NCBI GenBank assembly: GCA_030390025.1
Contig: CM059432.1
Coordinates: 94,738,001-94,802,000 of the forward strand
Source: Squalus acanthias
Lineage: Eukaryota
DNA: 64,000 nt
Reading direction: 5' to 3'
The notes under the pieces are model-generated. The model searched no databases and had not been told where the DNA came from. It worked only from the letters and a program-made list of their open reading frames with translations. Positions 3,381-34,545 of the stretch are shown one piece after another. The translations under genes were made by a program, and so were the position numbers. Each line of letters starts with the position of its first letter. Position 1 is the stretch's first letter.

Positions 3381-4428
3381 GTCCCACCCAAAACACAGGA
3401 ACCATTAAAACCTATCACAGAACCCATTAAAGACATGCATAAAGATAGGAGTGCTAGGCCCAGCAAGAAACCCAAAACATGAGGACAATGCAAACTCTGA
3501 TTAAACAACAGATCAACAGGACGCAAGCCATTTGACACTTAGTAAAGTCGTTACTGTTGACGAGGTCTTACAATGACCAGGATTTGATTTGGTTTTGACA
3601 AGGCCAGCTCAATTTAGTATAATTGAAGGCCCATCAAGCAGTTACAACAGTTCAGTAAGAAGAGAGTTCAGGACAATTTAACACCAAGTTAAACCCATCA
3701 AAACTTAACAAGCCCACAAAACCAAGACAATGGAATGAACAGGCCTCAACTGAAACCTAAATCACTTCAACACGAAACTGATTTAGTAAGGGGTTTTGAC
3801 GTGAAAAAGACAAAGGGTCCGAACAGTATAATTGAGAGCCCAATCCCCCAAGAAGCTCTCTCTCAGCTTTGTTCCAGGGGCAGCAAGTTCCAGCAAGACA
3901 CAGACGGGTCTACCAGCCACACGACACGAGCAGGAGGAGGAGAGAAGCAGCAAGTTCCAGCAAGACACTCGACGACCAGACCACCATTGCAGATTTCACA
4001 GACCGGTACCATGTGGGGACGGCAGGCCCCAAAGGACAAAAAGAGAGTACCTCAAAATCGCAATCAACTTACCTGGCTGGATTTCGCACTGTCAAAACCC
4101 CTGTTTGGTGAGCATTATCCCTGATCTCCTGAAACCGAAACCTAGCTAGATAGTGGGATTTTTGGGAGGGATAAGGGTTTTTGTATATTGTCATTCTCCC
4201 TCGCCTGTACCGTGTGTTCCCCAACCTGTTTAACTGTTAAGTGTGTTTTAAGTTTGTTACCTTTTTCTTTTAATAAAAGTCAAAATTCTTTCATCGGAAC
4301 CTGTTGTCTGCTGCATCTTTATTCACTACCCCTAAATAAGTCCAAGGTCTGAACCAGGGGCGTGGGAGCGATTCGAACCGCTCACTGAGTCAGAGGTGAG
4401 GCTGACCCCTACCACACCACCCCCTACA
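3380..4428 (+). mobile_element. 5'-truncated solo LTR, same family as 42637-43878
   Basis: Ends ccaccccctaCA and has AATAAA at ~4272. Shares tagtaaagtcgttactgtt...gaggtcttacaatgacc with the reverse complement of ~43332-43370. Confidence 0.8.
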
Positions 4429-4429
4429 C

Positions 4430-7400
4430 CTCAGACTGTCCAGGTAGTGCAATTATTGCTTTAGCATCCCTATGGACTGCCCAGTGACTGTTCTGGTTGA
4501 GCTGTGACTCCTGTTTTATCTGATCTACATTAGCGTCCTTGGGTTTCAGAGTAGGGTCATCAGCGAAATCTGCAGTGGATACCTCTTGTCTTCTCGCAGC
4601 AGCCTGGAGCGTGGTGCTCCTCGTCAAAGAACGGGCGATGCTGGGAAACCACTGGGTGTAGGCATCATGAAAGCTGTCTTGAAAGTGGGCACACAGCTGC
4701 ATTAACTACTGTCAGCTATCACAGACCAGCTGGACAATAAGGGAGTGAAAGCTTTTGTGGTTGATAAAGATGCCAAGCTAGTCAGCAGGAGCCCTAATAG
4801 CCACATGTGTGCAATCGATGGCATTCTGCACTTGTGGGAATCCTGCACTTGTGGGATCCTGCGATGGCTGCAAAGCCCACAGCCTTTCCCTGCTGGCTCC
4901 TGGGGTCCATGGGGAAGATGATGAAGTAATTAACCCCAGAATACGGGATCATCCTGGCTTCTTTTCTGGCTTTCTCTTCACTACCAACCATCTCCTTAAA
5001 ACCTTCTCCCCTTCCCCCTGACCCTCACCTTCATCAAGTGCGAGGAGCTCAAGGACTTCTTTGCCACTAAGATTAAAACTATCCATTCACTGGCTCTGCT
5101 GCTTGCTGACCTTCCTCTTTCACACCAATCCATACTTCCCCTCAGATAACCCTGTTCTAGCCCTGAACCTACATCTTTTTCCAGTTTCTCTTCTATCTCC
5201 CCTCAAAGCCTCTCTGAGCTCATCTTGTCCGTGAGACACACCTCCTGCTCCCTTGACCCCATTCCCACTAAACTGCTGACCACCCAACTTCCTTTTCTGT
5301 TCTCCATGCTAGCTGATATTGTAAATGGTTCCATCACCTCAGGTACTGTACTATCCCTTTCAAATCTACCATCATCACCACCCTTATCAAAAAAACACTC
5401 TTGATGACCTCTGTCCTTGCAAACATCTGCCCCATCTCCAACCTCCCTTTCCTCTCTAAAGCTCTTGAATATGTTATCAGTTTTCAAATCCATGCCCATC
5501 TGTCCTGCAACTCTAATCAGGTGAATGTGACTGTGGTGCGTTATCCCTCCTCATTCTCCTCAACTGCTCTGTAGCTTTTGACACAGTCAACCACACCATC
5601 CTCCTCCAACACTTCTCCTCCATTGTCCAGCTCAGTGGGACTGCCCTCGCCTGATTCCACTCTTACCTGCCAATTGTAGTCAGAGCATCTTCAGCAATGG
5701 CTTCTCTTCTCGACCCTGCACTGTTATCTATGGAGTCCCACAAAGATCTATCCAAAGCCCTGGCCATTCTTCTTCCTAATCTACATTCTGCCCCTTGGTG
5801 ACACCATCCAAAGATATTGGGTCAGCTTCCGCCTGTACCTTCACCTCTCCATTACCTCTCTTGACATTTCCACTGCCTCTGTGTTTTCAGACTGCATTAT
5901 GTCTTGAATAAGCTGCAAATTTCTCCAGTTAAACATTAGGAAGGTCAAAGCCATTGTCAGCAGCCCCCACTATAAATTATGTACCCTTGCCAGCAATTCC
6001 ATCCTCTTCTCTGGCCATTGTCTCAGGTTGAACAGGACTGTTCACAACCATGGAGTGTTATTTGACTCTGAGCTGAGCTTCTGACTCCATATCCTTTCCA
6101 TCACAAAGATCGCCTACCTCTGTCTCCATAACATCACCTGCCTCTGCTCCTGTTTCAGCCCATCTTCTGCTGAAACCTTCATCCGTGCTTTTATCACCTC
6201 CAGACTCGATTATTTCAATGCTCTCCTAGCCGGCCTTCCATCCCCCAACATACATAAATTTCAGCTGATCCAAACCTCTGCAGCCTATATCCTAACGTGC
6301 ACCAAGTCCCACTCACCCATCACCCCATCCTTGCTGACCTACATTGGCTCCCGGTCTCATAATACCTCCAAATTAAAAGTATCATCCTCATGTTTAAATT
6401 CCTTCATGGCCTCGCCCCTCCCTATCTCTGTAACCTCTTCTATCCCTACAGCCCACCTGAACGCTCTGTTCCTCCGACTCTAATCTTTTGTACATCCCTT
6501 CTTTCATTTCCCCCACCATTAGTAGCCGAGCGTTCAGCCATCTAGGCCACACGCTCTGGATTTCTCCCTTTAACACCCTCCTTAAAACCCATCTCTTTGA
6601 CCAACCTTTTCATCACCCCTCCTAATATCTCCTTATTTGGCTTGGCATCTATTTTTGTATGATTACACCCCTGTGAATTGCCTTGGAACGTTTTTCTACA
6701 TTAAAGGCACTATATAAATGCAAGTTGCTGTTTGTAGGTTGGCATTCATGTTGGAGAGGAAGTTAGCTTCTCGCCTGTCATGTCTCTTTGCTAAAGCCCC
6801 CTCAGGTAAGGTCCTGGATTAACCAGCTGGCGACGAGTAAGCTTGGTACACGGCAGATTCGTACATCCAGAACATAAAGGTGGCTTACACGATGCAAACT
6901 GCCCTGTGCAGGTTTTTCACCACACTGAAAGTAGATGACTGTTATATAGACAATGAAAAAACTGAGACTCGGGACGACAGCTGCTGGAACGTTTTACCTG
7001 GAAGCCGGATATGAGAATACATGCTCATATATCCAGGACTAAATGCCTACCATGACTGGGTTGTAGAGAATCAAGCAGCGGCAGGTGAAAATCTGTACCT
7101 CCAGCTGGCTGAAGCAGTGTTTAATGGGATATGGTGTGTGTCCATGCTGTGGTCAGGAGGATGGTGGTAATGCATTCACATAACTTATGGTGATTTGTGT
7201 TGCTCACCATGAGGATCTCCTGAAACTTGCTGTCCACCTAGCGAAGGACAAATCTGCACCCTCAGTTGTCTGACAACTAACTAATGACTATCCTTTTTGG
7301 AGGAAGATAAGTGGGGACTCTTTGGGGCTAAGGTGGCAGTAGAAGCGCAGAACCAAGTCAAATAAACCTCTGTGGTAGACTAATCTGATACCGTAAGCAG
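4430..7400 (+). mobile_element. Possible very old L1/Tx1-like ORF2 C-terminal remnant, split by the L2 at 4950-6735
   Basis: Only degraded peptides are visible: HPEHKGGL (~6860) and CPCCGQED (~7136, like a zf-RVT knuckle). Many stops and frameshifts. Confidence 0.25.
4950..6735 (+). mobile_element. L2 LINE, degraded
   Basis: Plus strand encodes SCSLDPIPTKLL, YGVPQRS and TSRLDY. The 3' end taaaggcactatataaatgcaagttg is shared with the other L2 copies. Confidence 0.9.
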
Positions 7401-8256: not shown

Positions 8257-9445
8257 ATGAATTGGGGCTGTACTGGCAGTCGAATACGCCCTCCAGGATC
8301 GACTGGAGGGAGCGGAGGCAGCGAGAAAGATTGGAACATGTGGCCAGAGGGAGGAAGAGGGCCATCAGGGCTCTCAACTGGAGGCCTTATGCTCTGAGGG
8401 TATTCCGAGAGCACTTCTACCTCCAATTAAGTGAGGAGCAGTATATTAGCAGTGTATTAGAACTCTGCCACCTCCTGAAACCAGACCTCCATCCTCAGAT
8501 CAGGACAACCACAGCTCTCTCAGTGGCAGTCAAGGTCACCATTGCCCTCAGTTTCTTCGCCAGCGGATTCCTCCAGTCTGCAAGAGGAGACATAGCTAGC
8601 ATCTCATAGTTCGCTGTCTATGGCTGCATCCGGGAGGTCACAGAGGCTCTCTACAGTAGGAAAAGGGAAAACATTTCCTTCCCCATCACCAGAGAGAAGC
8701 AGGACGAGCGTGCATGTGGCTTTGTCAGGATAGCGGGATTCCCCATGGTGCAGAGTGCAAAGCCATATGGCTTTGCGGGCACCTCATAACAATCCTGAGA
8801 TCTTCCATAACCGCAAAGGCTACCACTCACTTAATGTGAAGTTGGTGTGCAACCACAGACAGAGAATCCTTAATGTCAATGCCCGCTATCCTGGCAGCAG
8901 CCACGATGCCTTCATCCTGCGCCAGACCGGTGTGCCAGTATTCTTCCAGCCACCACGTCAAGCTCGCAGCTGGCTGGTTGGAGACAAGGGTTATCTGCTC
9001 TCCACCTGCCTCATGACCCCCCCTCCGCAACCCCAACACTCCTGCCCAGCACTCATATAATGAGAGCTATGCTGCCACCAGGAACATCATCGAGCAGACC
9101 ATCGGGGTGCTCAAGCAATGGTTCCGCTGCCTTGACCACTTGGGAGGAGCCCTCCAGTACTCGACTAAGCGGGTGTCCCATTTCGTGGTGGTCTGTTGCA
9201 TGCTCCACAACTTGGCCATCATGAGGGACCAGCCCTTGCCACCAGGGATTGCGGGACCACCTCAGGAGGAGGAAGAGGGAGAGGAGGAGGAGGAGGAGGA
9301 GGAGGAGGAGGAGGAGGACGAGGAGGAAGAGGAAGATGAGGAGGACGAGGAGGACGAGGAGGAGGACGAGAAAGGAGGCAGCCACTCAATCGGCCATCTG
9401 GAAGGGTGGTCCGTGACTGCCTCAACAGCGGTTCGAATGAATTAA
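8257..9445 (+). pseudogene. Harbinger (HARBI1-like) DDE transposase, frameshifted
   Basis: Three ORF pieces carry VAVKVTIALSFFASG, NRKGYHSLNV...ARYPGSSHDAFIL...GDKGY and LKQWFRCLD...CCMLHN, then a poly-Glu tail. Colinear with 27819-28979. Confidence 0.92.
9265..9370 (+). repeat. (GAG)n-rich trinucleotide repeat encoding the acidic transposase tail
   Basis: Runs of gaggaggag are visible directly. Confidence 0.9.
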
Positions 9446-9605
9446 ACCCCAGATCCCCGTTGCTCACCACATCCCCATCATTCCACTCCTGTCGCAGGCC
9501 ATATCACAGCGCAAAGCTGAAATGAGACATACCACAAAAGAATCCAAACGGAATTAATAAATTCATCAAAAATGAGTGAAAACATATTTACAACAAAAAT
9601 ATTAA

Positions 9606-11483
9606 CTATTCACCCTTGTGCAATCCCTTAGTGCCTCTCATTGCTGTGCCTTTGCCTACTCTAGTGCTCCTATGAAGTGTTCGCCCAGTGGCTGCAGCAG
9701 GGCTGGAGGAAGGCTGCTGAGAGTCCGTGCGGGAGACTTCAGATGGCCTTGCAGGACGCCCTCGACCAGCTCTGGGCCTGGAAGGCCTGGCTATAGACTG
9801 CACCACCTCAGCATGGGCAGCAGCAGTCTGGGCTGGCTGGATGACAGGCAGCAACAAGGGCAATGGCAGAGTGGCAGTCGTGGGAGCAGGAATGCTGTCA
9901 TCCTGAGAGAGGACAGCAGGTTCCTGCTCCACTGCCACACCCCCAGGGCAGCACCTCAGCATCCCTAGCAATCTGTTGGAGCACAAATTGCTGGCCTGCT
10001 AAGACACCGTGAAAGCCCCAGTCGATGGTGGTATAACCAACCACGATGACAGCAGTCAGAGCTTGCGTGGCATCAAGCTGAGACTGTATGAGAGCAGTCT
10101 GAGATTGAATGCCACCAAGCATAGGCTGCATTACAGCATTAAGACATTGCGTCACTTCAGCCTGTGCTGCAATGGAAGCTGCCAGATTGCCCATCACATG
10201 CAGCACCAGGTCTGGGTCGCCACAGTTTCTCTGGGAGTCTACCATCCTTTGCAGACTGGAAATGATGGGCTCCATGGTGTGCGCAGAGCTTTGTGCAATG
10301 TTGGAGGCGGACTCCTCCACGCTCCTTATCATTGCCGAGAGGCTCTCGGGCACCCTTGCCATTGCACCTATCATCTCCGTGTGCATGCCCATCACCCTTT
10401 TTCTAAATGCCTCCCCATCAAGGTCTTCATCTGAGTCCTGTGCAGCAGAACTTGCGCACGAACTCGCCCTCCAGGGAGCTGGCCCCCGAGCTACCCTTTC
10501 CCCCTGGCCTTGTTGCAGCTCACTCGTCCCCGGTGACTCACCCTGTGCAGATTCCGCTACTATACTAGCTTCTAAAGAATGCATAGTGCCAGTATCTGAG
10601 CTGGTGCCTGCAGGTGAGACATGCAGTGACGCGGTGTGTTGTTCCTCCTCCTCTTCTCCCGCCTCGCTGTCTACGGTGCCCTCAGGGATAGGCTGCTCAG
10701 GTGCTTGCTCACAAGAGTCGGGATAAGGTGAGGGGAGGGGGACAGGAAGGGAGAAATGCATGCATACAGCATGATTAGCTGGAAAGTGTGAAACGCTTGT
10801 GGGGTGAGGGGGGAAGTGGGATGTGAGAAGAAGGAGTAGGGATGAACAGACCGTTGTTGTCTCCAAGGGGTCAACATCGCCGGTGGTCACAGTGCCCACC
10901 ACCTGGCACCCAATAATCTGCAGCACGCTATTCTCCAGCGCAGACAGTGGTTGGGTGTTGGCTTGTCCCCCACCTGTGCGCTCCTGCTCCCTCCTGTTGT
11001 GAGCCACCTTGGCCTGCAAGAGAAAGGAAAAGTGTGTGAGTGAGTGTGGAGCAATGTGTTTGGGTGATGTGCTTGCCATAGTTGAATAGCTGTCATTGTG
11101 TGCAAGGAGTGAGATGTGGGTGTGACTTTGGTAGGTAGAGATTGTTGATGGGTGAGTGCTGGGGGTGTGGTGCTTTGGGCAGTGTGTGAAAACTATGGTT
11201 CAGATGGTGGTATGTAGCATTTGTTCTAGCATTCTCTCACCCTGACCACCTGAGTGAGGTCGTTAAATTTCTTCCTGCACTGTGTATGAATCCTGGGGAC
11301 CACAGTGCTGCCCGAGATGTGTTGCGCTACCTCCCTCCACATGGTGCGGAAGACTTGCGGCGAGGGCCTCCTGCCACTTGCCAGGTAGAGCACTGTCCTC
11401 CGTCTCTCCACAGTGAACACCAACGCCTCCAATGCTTGATTGCTGAATCTGCGGGCTCTCTCCCTGGGGCGTGGATCTGCCAT
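9606..11483 (-). pseudogene. Harbinger Myb/SANT-like partner gene (spliced; frameshift near 9940)
   Basis: Exon 1 is 11483-11241 (RFSNQALEALV...MWREVA...QCRKKFNDL, donor gtgaga). Exon 2 starts at 11013 after ttgcag (AKVAHNRREQERTGGG). The C-terminus is split between ORFs 9898-11079 and 9606-9986. Confidence 0.85.
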
Positions 11484-12039
11484 GAGTACAGCTGCTTCAG
11501 TCCTCTGACTCCTTCTCCTTGATCTGCTGCTACTTGCTGAGGTTCTGCAGCATTAATGAACCTCCCCTTTAAGAACTGGAAAAAGCCTGTGGCAATCATG
11601 ACTTGTGATTAGACTGCACCTGATATTGGTCCACCCACTGAGTGTAACGCCAAAGAGCTTGGGCTTAAAGACTTGAATTAGTGCTCCAATAATTTCTTTG
11701 AGCAGTGAGCATAAATTTTGCGTGCAGTCTAAAGCATTAGCGCCTGGCGCTAATTCTCCAACTTTTCTAATTATACCACCCATTCCTGGGCTATAATGAA
11801 TTTCTAGCCCAGAGACTCTTAAACATGGTGATGATTTTCTACATTTGTCAGATATCTGGCTGACTCAAAAATGAAATGGTTCAAAGCTGCTGTAATATTT
11901 GTACTGATGTCAACATCTAGCTGTGATTGCTTATATCATGTATAACCATAAGTGACTAAACCTGTTTCATAGTTTAGTCTGTTACAAAAAGTGTCTAGCA
12001 TGGTTGATATTAATCACGTCCTGAAGTGAGGTTGGCATG

Positions 12040-13140
12040 TAGTGGAAATCCTATGTGTAAATACAGAAATGCTGTGGCTGCACCTCTTCAACGGTGCCAT
12101 TAGGCATCTCAGTCAACTTCATCATGAAGATTTGCACATTAGCTCCACTGCTACAACTGCTCCGTCTGTGGCAATTAAAGTGACAATAGTCCTCAACTTT
12201 CATGGCTCTAGATCCTTCCAGGCTGCCACAGGGATCTGTGCAACTTTAGCCAGGAAGCTGTCAGGGCATGCATCCAGCAGGTGATGGATGCCCATTTTTA
12301 TAGAACAGCTAAATTCATCCACTTCAGCATCACCCCTAGACAGCAGAGGCACAGACCCAGGGGTTTGTAGAGGATAGCTAGATTCCCCAGGGTGCAGGGT
12401 TCCACAATGGCACCAAGCAGCCGCTGACATATGTGAATGGGAAGAAATTCCATTCCTTGGTTGTCCAGCTCATACGTGATACTAACCAAGCTGTGTCCTT
12501 ACTCGCCACTCCAAGGGCATCAGAGAGCAAATTCCGCAGAATGTCATCATTGACTGATCGACTTCAGTAGCAGCGCCTCAGCCATACTTTCTTCTACGCA
12601 CCCTACCAGATGACACCAACGCAGATTTCTGTGGCCCAGAAGTACCCTTGCCAGGAATCCTCACCTGTATGAAGAAGTCTAAGCCTACTGAGTGGTCTAT
12701 TTCCTGATTTACTGTACTGTTCATAAAATAATCATGGGACAAGTGCCTAGTGTATTTCAAAGCAAATATTTATTTTATTGCGAGCTATGGGGTGGAAGGT
12801 TTATGCATGTGAGGATAAGGCCGCCAGTTAAGGACTGTGTGACAATTGTGGTGGGAGAGGTTAAATGAGGGATGTTGGGGTGTGAGGATGATAAAGTGGA
12901 GGAAAGTGTTCTGGGGCTGTACAAAGCAGTTGACGTGTGTTGGGGGAGTTGTAGGTGTCCTTACGCAGGGTGTAGTATGAAGGCTTAGTAGTGTGAATGT
13001 TGTTTTAAGAGGGTGAAAAATGTAGTGATGCCCAAGGTGGGCAGGGAGGAAAGGGAGAATGTGGTGACTTGTTGCCTTTGCCTACCCTCACAAAGTATTT
13101 CCACTTCTTTTAGCATTGTTGAGCAGTGCCAGTGCCAACT
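12040..13140. mobile_element. Highly degraded, internally deleted Harbinger remnant
   Basis: Plus strand gives SVAIKVTIVLNFHGSRSFQAATG, ARFPRVQG and KKFHSLVVQL. Minus strand at ~13080-13125 gives QQC*KKWKYFVRVGK, like Myb helix 3. Confidence 0.7.
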
Positions 13141-15897: not shown

Positions 15898-16636
15898 GGG
15901 GGAAAAATTGAGTCGCACCTCCTTTGGGGCGCTAACTTCGCCAGGGCGCTACTTTTAGCGCTCCATAAAAATTAGCGCCCCCGCGCCGGAAATTGAGTGG
16001 TTGCGCCTCAAGAGGGAAGCGGGGCGCTACTGGAAGCGCCCCGCATCCCTTTTGGGGTGCTGTGAATCAATATCGTGCAGCTTATTTGCACCGCAGTATT
16101 GCAGGCCTTCCTCCCCTTCTTAAAGGGGAGGAAGGCCTTGCACAGAGCGAACCGGGGCCCAGCTGGGCCCCCGGGGATCGGGAATGCCGGCAAAAGAGCC
16201 CGGCACTCAAGAGAAGTGGAGCGCAGCCGGCACTTCGAGGGGGGGGGGGCTTCACGGGGGCCGGGGACAGCAACGGGGGCAGGTGCTGGCAGGCAGCCAG
16301 CAACAAAAATGGCCGCCCGCCACCTCCCCTTTAACTAGCGCTGCCCCGGCCGCAGGTAGGCCCCCCTGACCCCGTCGGACATAGCGTCCGGCGGAAAGTC
16401 AAGGGGCGCTACCGAAGATCGCGGCCGGAGCGCGAGCGGGGCGCTGCGCATGGCGATGATGTCATCGCCGGCGGCGCAGCGCCACAGGGCGCTACTGGTT
16501 AGCGCCGCCGCTAACCTCCCACTGAATGTCGCGGGAGGCGTGGGCAGCGCCGCACCCGGGCGCTAGTTGCTTTGCGCCCCATTAGCGCCCTCTTAAGGCG
16601 CTAACGGGAGGCGCAAACCAACTGAATTTTTCCCCC
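15898..16636. mobile_element. Harbinger MITE (739 bp) related to the H2/H3 family
   Basis: 16-bp TIR gggggaaaaattgagt / actgaatttttccccc with 1 mismatch. Flanks ata/aga lie inside a CR1 (atagagtc)n tail. The right end matches the reverse complement of the H3 left end. Confidence 0.9.
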
Positions 16637-20366: not shown

Positions 20367-21830
20367 ATGGAGGCTCAGCGCCAGAGGGCTGCGCCCAGGT
20401 TTTCTGATTCCTCCCTGGAAATCCTGCTCCAGGAAGTGAGAGCACGCAAGGAGGTCCTGTTCCCTGGTGATGGGAGTTAGAGGCCAGCATCTGCAACAAA
20501 GAGGGCATGGCTGGAGATCGCCTAGGAAGTAAGCAGCAGGGGTGTTGTGAGCCGCTCCTGGATCCAGTGTCGGAAGCGAATTAATGACCTCATGAGGTCA
20601 GAAAAGGTGAGTACAATGCCACATTCAACTACATCCTGATGTGAGTGTCACCCCAACCTCATCACTCTGCCTTTCCAAGCCTACTCCTGCACGTCACTCC
20701 TCACACCAACCTACCTTGCAGGTGCACCCAACCCTCACTGTCTATGCACCTACTCACATCCCCATCTGACTATCCACCACTGACACTCACCCTCAGTCTA
20801 ATGCAATCATAGAATCATAAAAAATAACGCCACAGAAGGAGGCCATTTGGCAATGTCACACCACTCCCTCATAGTCACCCTCTACAGATGTAGGCCATCC
20901 ATCCCCTACACTCATTCCATCACCCTCACTCAAAGTTCTCTGTTTCCCTCCTTGCAGGAGAAGAGAGCCCAGAACAACAGGGAGAGATAGAGAACCGGAG
21001 GTGGCCCTCCAATTTACACTACATTGACGCCAGCAGAGGAGGAGGCACTGGAATTAAGCGGACTGGCAGAGCTGCTGGCGGTGGGAGATGGAGACGGGGG
21101 GACCTCCCAGCAACCTGGTGACAGAATTAAATATCATACAGCCACATGGCATACAACAGTCACTCATGGTGACTTGATGTCAGCAGCCAGTGAAATATGA
21201 ACGTGTGCATTATGGCAACTTACAACATTCTTATCATAACAGTTCTAATTCATGTCTTTACTCTCCCACAGGCCGATCAAGTGCCCCCTGGCACTGTCCA
21301 GCCGGAGGAGGAAGACGACTCCTCAGATGAAGTTGCAGTCTCGGAGGGTGCACCGTCACCTGACCTATGCGCATCCAGCACCAGCACAGATACGCGCACG
21401 TCGGTGGGTCCTGTGAGAGAGAGAGTAATGTTGTCACCTGGTGTCTCACACATCACAAGTGAGCAAGAGCAGATGGTGGAGCCAGGGACAGCAGTGGAGA
21501 GTCCGCGTTGGAGGAAGCAGGACGCTCCAAGCTCTGCCCAGCTGGACGCAGATGCTGAACATCGGGGGCCATCGAGAAAGAGGCTGATCTTGGAGGAGCA
21601 GCAACAAATGCAGGAAGCTCTGGCAACTTTTCCAGCTGCAATGCGCGACTGTAGGGAGAATGGAGGAGTCCATCTCCACAATGAGCAGCACCATGTCGCA
21701 AGCGATGGCGACGATGTGCTCTTCCATCAAAAGGGGGGCTGCCTGTACGGAGGAGCAAATGCTCCAGTCAAACGAGTACATGCTTGCTGTGAACAGCAGC
21801 TTGCAGACTCTTATTGTAGTCATATCTAGG
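20367..21830 (+). pseudogene. Myb/SANT-like (NAIF1/MSANTD-type) Harbinger partner pseudogene, 3 exons
   Basis: Exon 1 reads MEAQRQRAAPRFSDSSLEILL...AWLEIA*EVS...QCRKRINDLMRSEK|gtgagt. Exon 2 starts at ~20959 (EKRAQNNRER*RTGGG) and exon 3 at ~21272. In-frame stops present. Confidence 0.8.
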
Positions 21831-23379
21831 AGGGACATGTGGAGGGCTGGCAGCAGGCTGGAAGATTTTTACGGAAGACTTTTAAAAAAAACTTAAAGGT
21901 ACCTTTTCAGGAGTGGCCTGCAGCAGTCAGTGCCAGGCATCAAAGGGTGGACTGTGCGCAGCTCATTGATACCTTAATGTTGCGTTGGGGTCCTATGTAT
22001 GTCATAGAACCCCATTAGTATATTACAAATATGTACTACTGTTTTAATGTGTGTAATTCACTGAGGTAGAAAGTACAGAGATCACTTTTTTCAGTCTCTC
22101 TCTCTTGTTCTACCTTCTATCACTGCACTGTGAATGTTTAAACAGCAGTGCAAAACCAGTAAATAGCAAACGAAAATGAAAGTGTTGACAACATAGCAGA
22201 TGGGGTAGTTTTTAGAACTTGTTATTTGGTCTAAGTTCGTCCAACACAAAAATGCTGTTGTCCACAGGTTAGATTGAATCTAAATTAAACAGGAGCTACC
22301 CCAATAACTGACTAAGTTGTCAGATTTTACAACTGTACCGAAACATGTATTTACCCCGATTAACATGGGGTGGACAATTGGGACTGGCAGAAATACAACA
22401 ATAAACCAGATTCTTTTCCCAAAATACTTCAGAACTGTTTAATTGCACCCAAAAGGGATGAGCAAATGCACTGCAGTCAGTCCTCTGCCAATCTCGCTCT
22501 TAAACTTGCGTGTTCTGCACTAAATTCTAAATTGTGAATCAACCCCTGCTTCACTGCAATTCTATCTAATTAGGTATGTTTGCAGTAATTATATTGTCAC
22601 AGGCCAATGTTTCCATGTAAATAGTGATAATATTTTTTCCAGAAAATCAACCTGTTCTGCAATTGGGTTAGTTTTGTGGGAAATATATTTTCACTATTTA
22701 CACAGAGGCTCTGGCCTGTGAAAATATAATTTTTCATTTGATGGAAACCAAGTGGGGAATTTACAGATACCTCTTAATACAGAAAACAGTTGTTTCATTT
22801 CTGCAAAACTAGAAACCTAGCAAAAGCTGACAACAGCTTCAAAAAAGCTGGTGCCATATTTAAAATGCTTCTGCCATTTTGTTCAAGGATCTCACTTGTT
22901 GCACACTGAGGGAAGCAAGGATGTCTAAAAATGCAAAGTACCATTTAGTTCAGCAAAGTACATTGCCTCAAAAACAGCATGGCGTGAATTCCCAAATTGC
23001 AGCAATGCCAAAGACTAAGGGGGAGAAATTCGGTATCTCCCCATTTGGGGCGCAATTATCGGTCGGGCGCAAAGTTTAGCGCCTGGCGCAAATTATCGCC
23101 TCCGACTGCAAACTTGGCTTCTATCGCCCCTGGAGGTGATTGGAGCGCTAAATCAGGCGCTTCACACCTCTCTTAAGGCGCTAATGCCGAGGAGCAAGGC
23201 GCTACCTCAGAGTGTGGGCGAAGCTCATGTGATGTCAGTTAGCAATGGGACACAGACACACTGGCACCGGCCAGTTCTTAAAGGGGAGGGTCGATCTTGC
23301 TCTCCAGCCACACCCTGCTCATTGCAGCCTTGAATCTCGGCCTGGACAAACCTCAACTTCAAACCTGCTGCAAAGAACA

Positions 23380-25142
23380 ATGGAGAGGCCCAGGGAATGA
23401 GCTCAGCGCTTCAGCGACCGGGCCTTGATGGCTCTGGTTAGCGCAGTGGAGCACCGAAGATCAATACTCTACCCACAGGGTGGCAGAAGGTCATTGCCCC
23501 GCGACTATAGAAGAATGTGGAGGGAGGTGGCTCAGCACGTCTCCTCCAGGAGCATGGTGCCCAGGACCCACAAACAATGTCGGAATTAGTTCAACAACCT
23601 CAGTCGGGTGGTCAGGGTGAGTGGCTGCTTTTCAATACCTCTACATCTCTCCATCTCAATCTCACTCTGTGGCCAAAGGGTTTAAAAACCCCAAATGCCC
23701 AACACTCATCCAAGACCTATGGCCATCTCATAAAACACACGCACATTCCACACCTTGCATACATTAAGGGCTATTCAACTATGGGAGGCACATCAGGCAA
23801 GCACATGGCTGCATATTTACTCAGACGCCGTCCTTTTTCTTGCAGGCCAAGCTATCTCATAATAGGTGGCAGCAGCAACGGATGGGTGAAGGGCCGGCTG
23901 AGCTGCGGATCCTCAGCGATTTGGAGGCGCGCATCCACAGGATCGTTGCCAGCCAGGTGATAGGTCCCGTGGCCGCTGGAGATGTCGACCCTCTTGGGGA
24001 CAAGAATGGTAAGTTCATCAGCTTTCTCTCCTCTCTCATTCCACTTGTCCCTCACAACACCAGCCTTTTACACTTTCAATCCAACTTACTAAATGTCTCC
24101 AGTCCTTGCTCCCTTACTGCCCCCCTGTCCTGACGCTAAAGCCACTCTTGTACCTCCCTGCTTTCAGATAGTGAACCACCAGCTGAGCAGCCTGTCCCTC
24201 AACCAACCAGTGGGAGCGACGGCCCAGGCGAGGAGGAAGAGGAAGCCGGAGCCTCAGCGCCAGCGTCTCCCGAGGAAGCCCATGCCCACACTGGGACCAC
24301 GCCTTCCCTGGAGGGGAGCAGGAGGGAAGGGTCTGATGAGGTTGAAGCTCCAGGACTCAGCGGGCTGCAGCAATGCCATGTGGCTAGGGAAGCTCGGGGG
24401 CCTTCTCCCCGGAGGGAGAGTAGGCCAGCGAGTCCTGCTGCACTGGACGCAGAGGAGGAGCGGCTCATCGCTGAAATGAACACCCAGGCGTTGAACATGC
24501 ACACTCAACTCATGGGTGCAGTGGGAAGGGTGCCCGAAAGCATTGATGGACTGGCTAGGAATGTGGAGCACTCCGCTGCAGCACAGGCCGATGCAACGCA
24601 ACGGCTTAGTGCTGCAATTCAGTCACTGGCTGCTGCGATCCAATCTCAGACTGCTCTCATGCAGTCTCAGATTGAGGCCACGCAAGCACTGACTGCTGCC
24701 ATCGTCGCTGGGTAAGCCACATTGCCCCGGGGCTCTCACGGCGCCGCAGTAGGCCAGCAATCTGTGCTCCAGCAGATTGCTCCGGATGCTGAGGTGCTGC
24801 CCCGTGGGAGTGACAGTGTGTCGGTCGAGCAGGGAGGTGCTGTCCTCTCTCAGGATGACAGCATTCCTGCTCCCATCACTGTCACTTCCCCATTGTGCTT
24901 GCCACCTCCTGAAACACAACCAGCCCAGACTGCTGCCGCCCATGCAGAGTTGGTGCAATCTGCAGCCGGGGCCTCCAGGCCCAGAGCTGGTCGAGGGCGT
25001 CCTTCAAGGGCATCTGTAGTCTCTGCATCTGACATTCAGCAGCCTTGCTGCAGCCACTGGGGCCCCATTACGGAGGAGCAGTAGGGTGGGAAGGGGGGAA
25101 GTGCGTAAGGGATGGAGATCACCCTCGAAGGGCAAACAGTAG
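23380..25142 (+). pseudogene. H2 Myb/SANT partner pseudogene
   Basis: Colinear with the H3 gene, with the same three exons. Premature stops include CGA>TGA at 23398-23400. Confidence 0.88.
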
Positions 25143-25455
25143 GAGGTCTAAATAAATGGTGGGAATGTTTTTATTAATGGTCAACGTTCAGCTGATAACT
25201 TTTGTTTAGTGTTTTGGCGTTTATCTCCAGCTTGTGAGAACCAGTTATGTTAATTAATGATTTGTTGTGTTTGTTTCTATTAGTTTGTCCTGAATAAATG
25301 ACACACACACAGTTTGTTAAATAAAAAAGTTGTTGTATTAAAAATGTACATGTTTGGCCTTTGCAATCATTGCAATCTTTGGCTGGCTATAAGGGTTGCG
25401 GTTTGCTTTCCATGATGTTGTTCTCCATGCCAGAAGCCATCTTCTGAGTAGGGGC

Positions 25456-26593
25456 CTAGAAGCGGCTTGTTATCAGCCGTTTTGGACGGCTCTTGCAGTG
25501 GCAACATTGTGGCCTTGGTGCTGCTGCTGATCATCTTCCTCCTCCTCTTCCTCCTCCTCCTCCGGTGGTGCACCAATCCCTGGTGGAATTGGCTGGGTCC
25601 TCAGGATTGCCAGGTTGTGAAGCATGCAGCATGCAACTATGAAGAGGGAGACTCACTCAGGAGAGTACAGCAGGGCTCCTCCTGAGTGGTCCAGACAGCG
25701 GAACCGTTGCTTGAGCACGCCGATCGTCTGCTCAATGATGTTCCTGGTGGCGAGATGGCTCTCATTGTACCGCAGCTCGGCAGGGGTGTTGGGGTTACGG
25801 AGCGGTGTCATCAGCCAGGTGCAGAGTGGATAACCCTTGTCCCGAGGAGCCAACCACTTGGCTGATGCGGTGCCTGGAAAAGGTCTGGCACACCAGTCTG
25901 GCCCAGGATGAAAGCATCGTGGCTGTTGCCAGGATAGCGGGCATTGACGGCGAGTATCAGCTGTCTGTGGTCACAGACCAACTTGACATTTAAGGAGTGG
26001 TAGCCCTTGCGGTTTTGGAAAACCTCTGCATTTTCATGCGGTGCCCGCAATGCCACATGCGTGCAGTCAATGGTGCCCTGCACCATGGGGAAGCCCGCTA
26101 TCCTAGCAAAGCCACATGCGCGTTCATGCTGTTTGGCTCGGGTCATGGGGAAAGAGATGTACTGGCGTCTCCTTTTATAGAGGGCATTTGTCACCTCCTG
26201 GATACAGCAATGGACAGCGAACTGGGAGATATTGGCGATGTCCCCAGTAGCTGCTTGAAAGGAGCTGGTGGCATAAAAATTCAGAGCCACTGTCACCTTC
26301 ACTGCCACCGACAGAGACGTCCTGGTCCTCCGTTGAGGCTGCAGATCTGGCTGCAGCAGGTGGCAGAGCTCAGTGACCACCTCCTTGCTGAAGTGCAGCC
26401 TGCACAAACACTGCTCCTCAGACAAATGAATGTAGGAGAATTGTTCCCGGAATACCCTGGGAGGGTAAGGTCTCCTGTGCAGAGGCCTGTTGGCCCTCCT
26501 CCCTCTGGCCATGTTTGCCATTCTCTCTCTGCGTCTCTGAAGCCTCCGATTCTGCAGGCGCAGGATGACGCCCCGAATCAGTGCAACTCCCAT
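25456..26593 (-). pseudogene. H2 Harbinger transposase pseudogene
   Basis: ORF 25811-26593 (GTIDCTH, NRKGYHSLNV). A 1-bp deletion at LLGD (~25843) and CGA>TGA at 25653-25655. Confidence 0.93.
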
Positions 26594-27818
26594 AATCTCT
26601 TCTAAATCGATGCAGGGAAGGTCAAATCAAATAGAACCTGCAAAGTGCTGCTCAGTAGCCAGAACTCCTTCACACAGCGTTGAATCTCTCCAGAAGTCTC
26701 TCTCTCTCTCTCTCTCTCAGGATCTCTCTCTCTCTCTCTCTCAGAATGAGTGGTGCAAAAATGTCTCCGACAAAAAAAGGCAGGAAGAGGCCGCCTTTAA
26801 ATAGCGCTCCCCCAGCCCCTTCCTGACTGCAAAACGTTCACCTCGTTGCTAGCGGCAGGCGGAAAGGAAGGGGGCGCCACTCAATATCCGGTCTGGGGCG
26901 CTACCGGGGCGTTGCATGCTTGGCTGATGTCACGATCTGCGGGCGCAGGAGATCGTGGCAGTAGTGTTTAGCGCTGCCGCAAAAACTCTGGTCAATTTTG
27001 CGAGCGGCACAAACATCGCCACGCCCAAGCGCTAGTTGCTTTCCGCCCCGTTAGCGCCCTCTTAGGGCGCAAACGGAAGGCGCTATTCAACTGAATTTTC
27101 CCCCCTAAAACCTTTATTTGTGTCTAGATCCAAACCACACTTCACGTAACACGAACAGTTGTTAGCACCAGGACCATAACTGGTATATTGTACCGCACAA
27201 TTGGACAATGATCCAAGCTATGCAAAAAATGCTCGGAAAAAAATTGCATTTCAAATCCTTTATTTGTAATTTTTTCCCCTGGCATGATGTTTTATTGAGG
27301 GAACATAGGGGTAAAAATTCAGTTGGTTGCGCCTCCCGTTAGCGCCTTAAGAGGGCGCTAATGGGGCACAAAGCCGCTAACGCCCGGGCGCAGCGATGTT
27401 TGCGCCGCTCGGGAACTTAACTAGAGATTGTGCGGCGGCGCTAAACCTTACCGCTGCGACCACCTGCGCGCGCAGATTGTGACGTAATTCCATGGTGCAA
27501 CGCCCTTGTGGCGCCCCGGAGCGGAAATTGAGTGGCGCCCCCTGCCTTACCGCCTGGCGCATCCAACGACCGGAAGACTGGAACGCTATCAATCGCTGTG
27601 GGGCTGGGGGGGGCGCTATTTAAAGGGGGCCTCTTCCTGTCTTTTTCTGTGGTCGACATTTTTGCACCACTCGTTCTGAGAGAGAGAGAGAGATTCGGAG
27701 AGAGAGAAAGAGAGACTTCTGCATTGACTCAACGCTTTGTGAGGTAGTTTTGCCTACTGATCCTAACTTCGCTGGTACTTTAGTTGCTGTCCTTCATTAC
27801 TTTGCTTGCAAAGAGAAT

Positions 27819-28979
27819 ATGGGGGCTGCACTGATTGGGGGCGTCGTCCTGCTCCAGCTGAATCGGAGGAGACAGAGACGCAGAGAGAGAGTGGCAATGA
27901 TGGCCAGACGGAGGAGGGCCAACAGGCGTATGTACAGGAGAGCTTACCCTCCCAGGGTATATCGTGAACAGCTCTCCTACATTCATATGTCTGAGGAGCT
28001 GTGTTTGCGAAGGCTGCGATTCAGCAAGGAGGTGGTCACTGAGCTCTGCCACCTGCTGCAGCCAGATCTGCAGCCTCAAATGAGGTCCAGGACGTCTCTG
28101 TCGGTGGCAGTGAAGGTCACAGTGGCTCTCAACTTCTACGCTACTGGCTCATTTCAAGCTGCTGCTGGGGACCTCGCCAATATCTCCCAGTTCGCGGTGC
28201 ATTGCTGCATCCGGCAGGTCACAAATGCCCTCTTTAAAAGGAGACGAGAGTTCATCTCTTTCCCCATGACCCCAGACAAGCAGCGTGACCGCGCTCTGGG
28301 CTTTGCGAGGATAGCGGGCTTCCCCATGGTGCAGGGCGCCATTGACTGCACGCATGTGGCTTTGCGTGCTCCGCATGAGAATGCCGAGGAATTCCGGAAC
28401 AGAAAGGGGTTCCATTCCTTGAATGTTCAGTTGGTCTGTGACCACAGACAGCTGATACTCGCTGTCAATGCCCACTATCCTGGCAGCTGCCACGATGCTT
28501 TTATCCTGCGCCAGACTACTGTGGCAGAACTTTTCGAGGCACCGCATCAGCCAGTTGGTTGGCTTCTCGGGGACAAGGGGTATGCATTGAGCACCTGGCT
28601 GATGACACCGCTCCGTACGCCCAACACCCCTGCTGAGCTGCGGTACAATGAGAGCCATCAAGCTACCAGGAACATAATTGAGCGCACAATCGGCATGCTG
28701 AAGCAACGGTTCCGCTGTCTCGACCATTCTGGAGGAGCCCTGCAGTACTCGCCTGAGCGAGTATCCAACTTCGTAGTTGTGTGCTGCATGTTGCATAACA
28801 TGGCAATCCTCAGGACCCAGCCAATGCCACCAGGCCTTGGAGCACCACCAGAGGAGGAGGAGGAAGAGGAGGAAAAGGACGAGGAGGATGATCATCAGCA
28901 GCACCAAGGCGGGAGGGTGGCCCACAATGGTCAAACTGCAAGGGCCGTCCGTCAACGGCTAATAGCAAGCCGCTTCTAG
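27819..28979 (+). CDS. Harbinger DDE transposase (HARBI1-like), 386 aa, intronless
   Basis: First ATG is at 27819, matching the H2 start MGVALI. Has an N-terminal HTH region, catalytic motifs GAIDCTH, LLGDKGY and NIIERTIG, CCMLHN, and an acidic tail. Confidence 0.93.
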   Translation: MGAALIGGVVLLQLNRRRQRRRERVAMMARRRRANRRMYRRAYPPRVYREQLSYIHMSEELCLRRLRFSKEVVTELCHLLQPDLQPQMRSRTSLSVAVKVTVALNFYATGSFQAAAGDLANISQFAVHCCIRQVTNALFKRRREFISFPMTPDKQRDRALGFARIAGFPMVQGAIDCTHVALRAPHENAEEFRNRKGFHSLNVQLVCDHRQLILAVNAHYPGSCHDAFILRQTTVAELFEAPHQPVGWLLGDKGYALSTWLMTPLRTPNTPAELRYNESHQATRNIIERTIGMLKQRFRCLDHSGGALQYSPERVSNFVVVCCMLHNMAILRTQPMPPGLGAPPEEEEEEEEKDEEDDHQQHQGGRVAHNGQTARAVRQRLIASRF

Positions 28980-29291
28980 GGGCCTTGCTGTGGAAATGGC
29001 TTCTGCCATTGCTAACAACATCAATGAACCCAGCACGCAACCCCTAAGCCGGCCAAGGCACCAATAATTCCAACCACCAACCATGTATATTTTGAATACA
29101 GAAACTTATTTATTTTACAAACTCTGTATGTTTCAATTCCTCATGACAAACTCATAGAAATAAACACAAAAAAACAGTCAATAACATAACTGGTTCTCAC
29201 AACCTGGAGATAATGTCCAAAACACTAAACAAAAGTTGGACCATGAACCTCGACCTTTAATAAAAAAATAACCAGCATTTTGTCACACCTC

Positions 29292-30268
29292 CTACTTTTT
29301 GCCCTTCGAGGGTGATCTCCTTCCGTTGCGCACTTCCCCCCTTCTAACCCTACTGCTCCTCCGTAATGGGACCTCAGTGGCTGCAGCAAGGCTGGTGAAA
29401 GGCTGCTGCTCGTCAGACCCTGACACTGCAGATGCCCCTGAAGGACGGCCTCGACCAGTTCTGGGCCTGGAGGGCCCGGCTGCAGACTGCACCAACTCTG
29501 CATGGGCGGCAGCAGTCTGTCCTACAGGCGGTGGCAAGTGCAGTGGAGAAGTGACAGTGTTGGCAGCAGGAATGCTGTCATCGTGAGAGAGGACAGCAAC
29601 TCCCTGCTCGCCCGACACACTGGCACTCCCACGGGGCAGCACTTCAGCATCCGGAGCAATCTGCTGGAGAACAGATTGCTGGCCTGCTGCGGCGCGGTGA
29701 CAGCCCCGGGGACATGTGCACGAACCATCGAGGTTGGCAGCAGTCTGTGCTCGCGTGGCCTCAATCTGAGTCTGCATGAGACCAGTCAGAGATGGGATCA
29801 CGGCAGCCAGTGACTGAATTGCAGCACTAAGCGTTAGTGTGGCATCCGCCTGTGCTACAGCGAAGTGCTCCACACTCCTTGCCAGTGACTCAATGCATTC
29901 GGGCACCCTTCCCACTGCACCCATGAGCTCAGTGTGCATGCCCGCCGCCTGAGTGTTCATTTCTGCGATCAGCCGCTCCTCCTCTGCGTCCATTGCAGTA
30001 GGAGTGTCTGGCATACTCTCCCTCTGGGGAGAAGGCCCCCGTTCTTCCCTACCCCCATGGCGTTGCTGCAGCCCGCTGGGTCCTGGAGCTTCACCCTCAT
30101 CAGACCCTTCCCCCCTGCTCCCCTCCAGGGAAGGCGTGTTCCCAGTGTGGGCATGGGCTTCCTCGGGAGAGGGTGGCACTGATGCTCCGGCTTCCTCTTC
30201 CTCCTCGGCTGCAGCTTCACTCCCAGTGGCAGCTTCAGGGCCCGTCTCCTCAGCTGGTGAATCACCAT
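29292..30268 (-). CDS. H3 Myb/SANT partner gene, exon 3 (977 nt, phase 1, includes stop)
   Basis: Acceptor cctgctttcag. The frame continues into ORF 29292-30179, giving an acidic linker, an Ala/Gln-rich helical segment and a basic NLS-like end RRSSRVRR...RRSPSKGKK. Confidence 0.85.
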
Positions 30269-30427
30269 CTGAAAGCAGGGAGGTACAAGAGTGGCTTTAG
30301 CGTGAGGACAGGGTGGCAGTAAGGGAGGAATAAGTGCAGCGAGTTAGCAAGTTGGATTGAAAGTGTCAAAGGCTGGTGTTGTGAGGGACAAGTGGAAGGA
30401 CAGAGGACAAAAAGGTGATGACCTTAC

Positions 30428-30590
30428 CATTGCTGTCCAGAACGGGGTCGGCGTCTCCAGTGGCGACGGGACCGATCACCCGGCTTGCCACAATCCTGTG
30501 GACGCGCTCCTCCAGATCGCTGAGGGGTTGCAGCTGAGGCCGCCCTCCACCTGTCCGTTGCTGCTGTCTCCGATTATGCGCCAGCTTGGC
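30428..30590 (-). CDS. H3 Myb/SANT partner gene, exon 2 (163 nt)
   Basis: Acceptor tttttcttacag and donor gtaag. Encodes AKLAHNRRQQQRTGGG...DPVLDSN. Confidence 0.87.
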
Positions 30591-30620
30591 CTGTAAGAAA
30601 AAGGACAGCATCTGAGTAAA

Positions 30621-30842
30621 TATACAGCCATGGTCTTGCCTGATGTGCCTCCCATAGGTGAATAGCCCTTACTGTATACAGCCATGGTCTTGCCTGATGT
30701 GCCTCCCATAGGTGAATAGCCCTTACTGTATACAGCCATGGTCTTGCCTGATGTGCCTCCCATAGGTGAATAGCCCTTACTGTATGCAGCCATGGTCTTG
30801 CCTGATGTGCCTCCCATAGATGAATAGCCCTTACTGTATGCA
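30621..30842. repeat. Minisatellite, 54-bp unit x4, in intron 1 of the H3 Myb gene
   Basis: cagccatggtcttgcctgatgtgcctcccata recurs at 30625, 30679, 30733 and 30787. Confidence 0.97.
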
Positions 30843-30982
30843 AAGTGTGGAATGTGTGTGTGTGTTTCATGAAAGGGCCATAGGTGTTGGATGAGTGTTG
30901 TGCATTGGGGTTTTAAGACCCTCTGGCCATAGAGTGAGGTTGAGATGGAGGGATGGAGAGGTATTCAGAAAAAGCCACTCAC

Positions 30983-31219
30983 CCTGACGACCCGAGTGAG
31001 GTCGTTGAACTTTTTGCGGCATTGAGTATGGGTCCTGGGCACCATGCTCCTGGAGGAGACGCTCTGAGCCACCTCCCTCCACACTCTTCTGAACTCGCGT
31101 GGCAAAGGCCTCCTGCCACTCTCAGGGAAGAGCATACATCTTCTGCGCTCCACCGCGCCAACCAGAGCATCCAAGGCCCGCTCGGTGAAGCGATGAGCTC
31201 GTTCTCTCACCCTCTCCAT
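30983..31219 (-). CDS. H3 Myb/SANT partner gene, exon 1 (79 codons, Myb/SANT-like DNA-binding domain)
   Basis: MERVRERAHRFTERALDALV...VWREVA...RTHTQCRKKFNDLTRVVR followed by donor gtgagt. Confidence 0.9.
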
Positions 31220-31967
31220 CCTTGGCAGCAAAATGGATTCACAGGTCTCTCCAGGCTGAGATTCAAGGCTGCAATGAGCAGGGTGTGGCTGGGGATCAAG
31301 TTGGCCCCCCCCCCGCTTTAAGAAGTGGCCTGCGCCAGTGTGTCTGTGTTCCCTCGCTAACTGGCAGCAGCTGCGCTGCGCTCGCGCGCTGAGTTAGCGC
31401 CTCACTGCTCGGCCTTTGCGCCTTAAGACAGGTGTGCAGAGCCTGATTTAGCGCTCCACTCACCTCCCGGGGCGGTAAAAGTGAAGTTTCCAGTCAGTGG
31501 CGATAATTAGCGCCAGGCGCTAATATTTGCGTCCAGACGATATTTGCGCCCCAAATGGGGCGTGACCTAATTTTTCCCCCATAGCGTTTTAAAGAACCTA
31601 AATGTCAGTTTATTATAGGTGGACTCAAGCCAAATAATTAGAGAATACAGCACAATATATCATTCCAATTGTAACTGCACCAATATAACAAGAACAGTGT
31701 AAAAAAATTTCATAATACCACTGAAAAACATGAGTTGGATCACTTAATTTATGGAGCTAATTGCTCCAAATTCACCATGACTTTTACACTGTGTGACCAT
31801 GGCAATCAATTGTACTGCTGTAAAAACCATCCTGCCAATTTAGCAGCTCATACAAATGTGGGTGGCAGCACAATTTATTCACTATTATATGGTAAAGTTG
31901 CAACAGAGTTAATGAAATGTAAAAAAGGCCAGGCTCCTGATTTCTGTGCGACAGTTAATATTGGATT

Positions 31968-33816: not shown

Positions 33817-34545
33817 GGGGAGAAATTTGGGAGCGCCCCGTTTGGGGCGTTAACTTTTGAAAACTGGAAAAATTAGCGCCAAGTGCTAATGGTTCTCAGC
33901 ATTCTCTAAATTCGGTATTAGCGCTCCAGGAAGGAAGTGGAGCGTTAAATCAAGGGCTCCACTTCCTTCTTGGAGCACTAAATGACACAGGTGGGGCGGT
34001 AGCGCTGCCGAGATCCGAGGCTCCTTTCCTCCCTTAAAGGGAATGGCCATCGCTGTAGGCTCTGCATTGGGACCAGTTAGCTGGTCCCCGATGGCGGCAG
34101 CGATCCGGCCCGATCAGCCCCATGTACTCCAGCAGAGTGCCGGGCTAATCGATCGCGACCGAAGAAAAATGGAAAAAATTGAAATAATGCATTGCAACAA
34201 TTTTTATGCTTACCACGCCAACATCCTCTTTAACTTGCACGCCTGAAGCGCCCAACCTCCCGAACAATGCCTCCTGCAGCTGCCGGTGTTGTCGCCCAGC
34301 GATGCTGCAGGGGGCGGAACCAAAGTTCGGGTCCGGGGCGCTACCGGGGCGATATGCAGGACAATGACGTCATGATCTCTGGGCACAGGAGATCGTGGCA
34401 CAATGTGTTACCGCCGCCGCAAACCTCTCGGCCAATTTAGCGGGAGTTGTTTATTTTGCTGCGCCCGGTCGGTAAGTCATTAGCGCTCTGTTATCGCCCC
34501 CTGGAGGCGATAACGGGAGGCACTAAAGACGTCAATTTTTCGGTC
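33817..34545. mobile_element. Older Harbinger MITE related to 15898-16636
   Basis: Degenerate TIRs ggggagaaattt / aatttttcggtc, multiple tagcgc motifs, and a shared ggggcgctaccg...gacgtca block. Confidence 0.75.

Follow-up and report, generated by a model that had tools for sequence, protein, structure and literature searches.

A full-length two-gene Harbinger-type transposon belongs to a large family that was probably amplified millions of years ago

We describe a two-gene Harbinger-type DNA transposon at positions 27308-31580 of a 64,000-nucleotide stretch of contig CM059432.1 (GenBank assembly GCA_030390025.1, positions 94,738,001 to 94,802,000), hereafter the window. This copy had been flagged in an original prediction, made from the letters of the window, as an intact element that may still be able to transpose. 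Our analysis indicates that it is a full-length copy, with both reading frames open, of a PHIS-type family of more than 1,100 copies that was likely amplified millions of years ago and has likely drifted neutrally since. The flagged copy is an ordinary member of its family and is likely long settled. It is the family, and not the flagged copy, that is a candidate natural gene-transfer tool.

Family size and open copies

The extent of the family was estimated from word counts spanning the 3.7 Gb genome. A 26-mer from the transposase gene had 1,156 exact matches, which puts the family above 1,100 copies; a 26-mer from the left end had 7,802, and a slightly looser 24-mer 18,445. Of the 30 left ends that come first on contig 1, 20 belonged to MITEs (miniature inverted-repeat transposable elements) of 891-897 bp and two to deletion derivatives of 726-740 bp. 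The remaining ends continued as this family (5) or as a sister family of 93% identity (3). The sister family (L034, L036, L045) has the same left end, and its transposase was open in 2 of 3 copies over the part covered. All 35 candidates scored in a similarity search were full length and 98-100% identical to the element, the flagged copy itself included; a proposed check for copies above 98% identity thus found full-length ones at 98-99%.

The positional sample consisted of the 60 transposase matches that come first on contig 1; of these, 47 were full length and 13 were set aside as truncated or carrying large internal changes. The transposase frame was open in 34 copies, the frame of the second, Myb-like gene was open with its splice sites kept in 24, and both were open in 16. 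One of these 16 has a change in an HDAF motif, and another an 18-bp in-frame deletion. Scaled to the genome, 16/60 gives ∼300 doubly open copies (190-460). Both frames were open in 19 of the 30 best matches. Loci met twice were left out of the counts: L031 and L048 repeat the loci L061 and L062, the flanks of L040 and L060 duplicate those of L038 and L059, and L160 and L174 had been counted already.

The family extends beyond this genome. Sequencing runs of five other organisms (organisms B-F; X7-X10, X12-X14, X18) hold 54-65% of the words of the element, and contigs from two of the five reach ∼99% identity to it, for example over 750 bases with 4 differences. The family is therefore either common to relatives, through shared ancestry and a slow clock, or has moved between species by horizontal transfer.

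Selection, age and present activity

Selection was analyzed in an alignment of 77 copies. Private variants of the transposase comprised 163 nonsynonymous, 63 synonymous and 11 stop changes, against a neutral expectation of 167, 63 and 8 (omega 0.97). Variants common to at least five copies were 17 nonsynonymous and 26 synonymous (omega 0.26, p 1e-5). Shared variants in the Myb domain gave an omega of 0.24 (p 0.008), and those in codons 111-458 of the same gene showed no purifying selection (omega 2.0, p 0.26). The selection signal was weak in the first 30 copies (omega 0.39, p 0.09) and clear with 77. Since shared variants were purified and private ones are neutral, the copies appear to stem from working source elements and to have decayed neutrally afterwards.

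A gene pair kept open by selection after domestication by the host, of the HARBI1/NAIF1 kind, would also have open frames, introns and spliced RNA, and homologues of the transposase are indeed annotated as 'putative nuclease HARBI1' (among the 120 listed of 272 matches). Domesticated genes would not be expected to keep terminal inverted repeats (TIRs) and a target-site duplication (TSD), or to occur in more than 1,100 dispersed copies, and here private variants, including those that create stops, build up as fast as neutrality predicts, and divergence is at the median. Copy number and an omega near 1 led us to reject domestication, which we consider very improbable indeed.

The tree of the 77 copies is star-like, with terminal branches totaling 0.447 and internal ones 0.057. 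The terminal branch of the flagged copy is 0.57% (rank 41 of 77), which makes it a copy of median age. A mutation rate of 7e-10 per base per generation has been published for the epaulette shark (95% CI 1.4-14.1e-10; PMC10587355). By analogy with that species, 0.57% would correspond, as a crude estimate, to ∼8 million generations (4-40 million), and hence to millions of years. No near-identical twins were seen: the closest pair differed by 0.46%, both among 68 copies and among the 30 copies nearest to copy L075. The closest of 20 MITEs differed by 0.67%. L075 (401-4563; G000:C1:62588183-62592345) lies nearest to the family centre, with 7 differences from the column majorities and both frames open, and would suit an assay better than the flagged one.

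Recent twins would be expected if the family were still transposing in the germ line with the flagged copy as one of its working source elements. Such activity would be in keeping with the intact frames, catalytic triad and splice sites of the flagged copy, and with the spliced family RNA; both proteins could come from the ∼300 open copies. The substitutions peculiar, or nearly so, to the flagged copy are L88M, V293M, E353K and A367V in the transposase and V242A, A296G, S424F and K448N in the Myb-like protein. They avoid the catalytic and invariant columns and the Myb domain, and methionine at 293 occurs in 2 of 25 homologues. Private substitutions at invariant residues, named in advance as evidence against competence, are thus absent, and such conservative changes mean that the proteins of the flagged copy may still be functional if expressed. 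A daughter copy was not found, however: the nearest sampled relative is 0.91% away, 16 substitutions in the 77-copy alignment are private to the flagged copy and one of its left subterminal motifs is lost, and even the near-central L075 is without a twin below 0.46%. RNA contigs carry the family base, at all depth, at 12 listed positions where the flagged copy differs (28080, 28695, 29128, 29944, 30966 and 31440 among them). This last point is weak evidence because rare variants are lost from contigs, which also stem from different individuals. We therefore regard it as quite unlikely that the family is still transposing in the germ line with this copy among its sources.

Amplification millions of years ago followed by neutral drift remains the reading that we favor, and several observations weigh against it. 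L075 lies only 0.08% from its node, so that insertions must have continued over time. The age estimate borrows its mutation rate from a different species, and branches are shortened where relatives are missing from the sample. In the two similarity searches, 35 of 6,461 and 36 of 2,227 candidates were scored, and with ∼105 of the more than 1,100 copies compared, a small, very young subfamily may escape. Spliced transcripts of the family occur in two studies. Finally, a target motif derived outside the tails of long interspersed nuclear elements (LINEs) predicts 7.4% of insertions in such tails, against 17% seen (p 0.0015; see Target preference).

Overall, current activity of the family is not supported, and enzymatic competence, as judged from sequence, is plausible. 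The original prediction had held most vertebrate copies to be decayed and this one to be possibly competent. Neither rarity of intactness, nor intactness as a sign of present activity, nor a uniquely competent copy is supported. About a quarter of sampled copies are doubly open, and the flagged one is of median age among ∼300; neutral private mutations, the missing twin and the lost subterminal motif likewise speak against its present activity.

Structure of the element

The anatomy of the element proved to be as predicted (Table 1). The limits at 27308 and 31580 are exact to the base, and the 12-bp TIRs match at 11 of 12 positions. Taken alone, the ATA duplication is weak evidence, since chance would produce it in ∼1 of 64 cases; what backs the boundaries is their recurrence across the family. 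A perfect 3-bp TSD flanks 85 of 100 family copies with both flanks and 25 of 28 further copies of a second sample, and a 4-bp TSD was seen in 1 of 100. A chance TSD was rejected on this recurrence, and a segmental duplication because the flanks differ from copy to copy. Both genes have the expected form: an uninterrupted transposase with the motifs IDCTH, GDKGY and IIERT, in which the triad D176/D252/E288 sits, and a convergent Myb/SANT-like gene on the minus strand whose three exons join through GT-AG introns into a 458-aa frame without internal stop in our splice model. The element is thus of the autonomous two-component type. The predicted TATA-like site and the AATAAA poly-A signals between the genes are present as sequence matches only.

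Table 1. Features of the two-gene element, in positions of the window
Feature	Position	Strand	Remarks
Left target-site duplication ATA	27305..27307	.	3-bp TSD recurs family-wide
Left TIR GGGGTAAAAATT	27308..27319	+	same boundary in other family copies
Left subterminal GCGCWAA/TTWGCGC cluster	27339..27444	.	4 motifs here, 5 in most copies
TATA-like TATTTAAA	27617..27624	+	upstream of transposase; sequence match only
Harbinger-type DDE transposase, 386 aa	27819..28979	+	Pfam DDE_Tnp_4 E 4.6e-40
3' region common to both convergent genes	28980..29291	.	AATAAA at 29159, 29259 (+) and 29109-29114 (-)
Myb-like exon 3, low-complexity, acidic	29292..30268	-	no Pfam match
Intron 2, 159 bp, GT-AG	30269..30427	-	exactly skipped in runs X11, X14
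Myb-like exon 2	30428..30590	-	splice model; no Pfam match
Intron 1, 392 bp, GT-AG	30591..30982	-	holds 54-bp tandem repeat
Myb-like exon 1, Myb/SANT-like domain	30983..31219	-	Pfam Myb_DNA-bind_5 E 4.3e-9
Right subterminal GCGCWAA/TTWGCGC cluster	31394..31549	.	6 motifs
Right TIR	31569..31580	-	reads GGGGGAAAAATT inward
Right target-site duplication ATA	31581..31583	.	matches left ATA

Within the 600 end bases there are 10 copies of GCGCWAA or its complement, and in the interior of the element none, compared with a mean of 0.15 and a maximum of 2 in 2000 shuffles. The original prediction mentioned neither this motif nor the 54-bp tandem repeat in intron 1. By analogy with known systems, these motifs are likely binding sites of the Myb-like protein. 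The motif lost from the flagged copy was destroyed by a private G>A at 27368, leaving 4+6 motifs here against 5+6 in most copies.

The predicted structure of the transposase, modeled from a 26-sequence alignment, has a mean predicted local distance difference test (pLDDT) score of 87. In the model, D176 belongs to a strand, D252 comes directly behind one and E288 is part of a helix; a strand/strand/helix arrangement of this kind is described for the PHIS superfamily (PMC4482050). A sequence search of the PDB with the transposase gave only three chance matches (E 0.07-0.7), and a PDB fold search gave none at E<=0.001 and only weak matches to integrases and transposases. The closest homologues come from sharks and rays, which points to a cartilaginous fish as the likely host. 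None exceeds 71% identity among the 120 listed of 272 matches. Several annotated HARBI1-like proteins (P0004, P0016, P0017, P0020, P0026, P0096) are without one or more of the DDE residues, which suggests, on sequence grounds, that they may be domesticated, non-catalytic derivatives.

Splicing and transcription

The proposed RNA check of the original prediction was borne out for the family, by splicing of intron 2, and not for the flagged copy, whose bases at the 12 listed positions are absent from the RNA contigs. The joint from 30268 to 30428 (CT..AC on the plus strand) was found in both probable RNA runs (X11, X14) and in neither of the two probable DNA runs (X1, X9). The RNA status of X11 and X14 is a guess supported by the exact splice joint, and unspliced contigs occur beside the spliced ones. 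When an empty site was looked for at this locus, the genomic flanks of the flagged copy had zero cover in all four runs.

The joint of intron 1 was not among the 15 joints listed (32 further rows followed). Its splicing is supported indirectly, by sequence comparison: GT-AG is kept in 76-77 of 77 copies, and a ray homologue reads ...DLTRTARDKLA across the intron where the splice model gives ...DLTRVVRAKLA. A search with exon 1 among longer proteins gave a single match in 165 candidates, a ray protein of 50% identity; exon 2 alone gave no alignment to the ray Myb homologue. The tandem repeat in intron 1 (30621-30842) varies in unit number, giving intron lengths of 230, 284, 338, 392, 500 and 608 bp, and unit number could mark sublineages.

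Target preference

The 85 perfect TSDs were TAT/ATA (28), TAA/TTA (17), AAA/TTT (12), CAA/TTG (11) and others (17), with no CWG; the core is A/T-rich, with WWW in 59 of 85. The flanks are palindromic, and 73% of the half-sites, once folded, carry G at +1. The consensus of 65 sites outside LINE tails is TAAAACAC-TWA-GTGTTTTA. The high target score of the flagged copy is partly circular because its own site lay in the motif training set.

LINE tails received 17 of 100 insertions and 5 of 28 in a second set (22/128), compared with 1.15% of a 390 kb background. The insertions lie just behind the 3'-end motif of the LINE, mostly within its 8-bp tail. The 3'-motif test was applied identically to insertion sites and background; of the 40 stretches chosen as background, one proved nonexistent, and two of the 17 sites (L002, L098) are without a clear octamer at the site. 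It replaced a period-8 test (19/100 against 1.0% of background) that had at least one false positive. We take the LINEs with this tail repeat to be of the CR1 type. This label is in line with a description of shark LINEs (PMC12498223). One LINE that ends at a Harbinger insertion has an RVT_1 frame with a 428-aa open reverse transcriptase stretch (L005:5948-7231, minus strand).

The 8-bp repeat ending these LINEs is TATGACTC and variants, which fit both halves of the target motif, and this match is the likely reason why about one insertion in six hits a LINE tail. Genome-wide, 2,077 element ends follow GACTCTAT, 254 follow AACACTAA and 123 follow GACACTAT, the latter two being consensus-like 8-mers. 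Their background counts in 390 kb are 12, 25 and 6, in that order, and with counts this small GACTCTAT preceded ends ∼8-17 times more often per occurrence than the other two.

These figures could mean that the element recognizes LINE tails in their own right, as a dedicated safe haven, over and above its general sequence preference. Tail enrichment is ∼15-fold, of which the motif from non-tail sites accounts for ∼6-fold, and the excess of GACTCTAT over the consensus-like 8-mers points the same way. However, the tail repeat offers both half-sites together, worth ∼4 bits, which is enough for an 8-17-fold ratio, and 106 of the 128 insertions, the flagged copy among them, lie outside LINE tails. 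Tail sites also score no higher than others (median 6.2 against 6.9), and zebrafish Harbinger3_DR has the same target motif. The 7.4% prediction given above is biased downward because tail sites were excluded from training; a residual two-fold excess remains. Taken together, dedicated tail recognition seems unlikely to us, and general sequence preference likely accounts for most of the enrichment.

In L011, L016, L069, L106 and L185, elements stand head to tail a few bases apart in one LINE tail, and run X1 contains a joint from 31580 to 27308 with 11 letters between stacked elements. Some distinct insertions have near-identical flanks outside LINE tails (L059/L161/L178, L037/L090/L169/L176 and L013/L051), which suggests further repeat-borne hot spots.

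Comparison with known systems

The family belongs to the two-gene PHIS/Harbinger superfamily. It has an IS5/PIF-type DDE transposase with an intact triad, a separate Myb/SANT gene, short TIRs starting with G, a 3-bp TSD and an extended palindromic target (∼15 bp in vertebrates). Of the narrower definitions, those of PIF/Harbinger and NuwaI do not fit, and that of NuwaII fits in the flanking C and G only. PIF/Harbinger in the sense of Han et al. (2015) has the TSD TWA; TAA/TTA makes up 17 of 85 here, and TWA is the per-position consensus only once LINE-tail sites are excluded. NuwaI has the TSD CWG (0/85). NuwaII targets C|TNA|G, of which the flanking C/G is present (73%) and the TNA core occurs in 20 of 85 TSDs. 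Like NuwaII as described in PMC4482050, the element has two open reading frames (ORFs; DDE and Myb/SANT), short TIRs starting with GG, a similar length (4.3 kb, against ∼4.7 kb for NuwaII), and C before and G after the TSD. TAT/ATA, helped by LINE-tail insertions, is its commonest TSD. The 12 host types listed for NuwaII in that paper include no cartilaginous fish.

A close likeness by description is to zebrafish Harbinger3_DR/Harbinger3N_DR (Sinzelle et al. 2008, as cited in PMC3016246, PMC2836001, PMC9710019 and PMC9392472), with a DDE transposase, a Myb-like gene, a 3-bp TSD and a repeated subterminal motif. Its target AAACACCWGGTCTTT (PMC3016246) is close to the consensus found here and likewise a ∼15-bp palindrome, whose left side reads AAACAC and whose right side reads G-T-x-T-T-T. 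Its core is CWG, unlike the A/T-rich core found here, and it is a consensus reconstruction, whereas ∼300 natural copies keep both frames here; the likeness is one of described features. Rice Ping/Pong and mPing (PMC2836001) also form a two-protein system with an extended target preference in which MITEs outnumber the autonomous element, but these are natively active plant elements with a TWA TSD and a 9-bp preference.

Intact vertebrate Harbinger families have been described before. PMC4482050 reports two intact ORFs in 11 NuwaI and 22 NuwaII families, with bony fish among the hosts, and PMC5741667 describes expanded, expressed Harbingers in newt. The newt and coelacanth families (PMC5741667; the latter cited there and in PMC5381603) are, like this one, large, recent-looking and transcribed two-gene families in slow-evolving vertebrate genomes. 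The host here is, in contrast, likely an elasmobranch. In a reef shark, Tourist/Harbinger is reported, at class level, as the most frequent kind of DNA transposon (PMC12498223). Harbingers were not found in elephant shark, and examination of other cartilaginous fish was asked for (PMC9179366); for one likely elasmobranch genome, our results answer that request. Our literature search, which covered openly accessible papers apart from supplementary family tables, found no account of a shark Harbinger family. Within that scope it likewise turned up neither a Harbinger insertion into CR1 tails nor a vertebrate Harbinger active in cells without reconstruction. Judged from the literature rather than by comparison with Dfam or Repbase, this appears to be a new family within the known two-gene Harbinger type.

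By analogy with Harbinger3_DR and Ping/Pong, transposition would require both proteins. The Myb-like protein would bind the subterminal GCGCWAA sites, bring the transposase into the nucleus and position it on the element ends. The D176/D252/E288 core would then carry out cleavage and strand transfer, so that the element is excised and inserted into the preferred palindrome with a 3-bp stagger. The ∼893-bp MITEs, with matching ends, would be mobilized in trans.

Natural, unrepaired copies, either the flagged one or preferably L075, may still transpose once both genes are expressed; judging from sequence we hold this possible, with expectation leaning somewhat against it. If true, the family would provide a native vertebrate Harbinger system with a ∼15-bp palindromic target and about a sixth of insertions into LINE tails. 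It would also provide a well-folded substrate for the structure of a PIF/Harbinger transpososome, for which no solved homologue was found in our searches. In 2024, 130 DNA transposons were reportedly surveyed in human cells, and Harbingers may be among them. The vertebrate Harbinger assay in the papers cited above used the reconstructed zebrafish element. Copies that are naturally open (∼300), spliced RNA, MITEs in their thousands and more than 100 mapped targets make it possible to test native activity and long-target recognition directly. The family also carries a caution: where mutation is as slow as in shark genomes, an element with open frames and 99% identity need not be young or active.

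Neighboring relatives in the window

A decayed relative at 23019-27105 on the minus strand stands head to head with the flagged element, 202 bp apart. It is 4,087 bp long and 83% identical, with a frameshifted transposase and its own TAA/TTA duplication. Several older Harbinger relatives and Myb-like remnants lie at ∼8400-11400, 4400-4920, 12030-12500, 15898-16636, 34300-34521 and 20409-21600. The short element at 15898-16636 has the flanks GAGTC-ATA and AGA-GAGTCATA, resembling a LINE-tail insertion.

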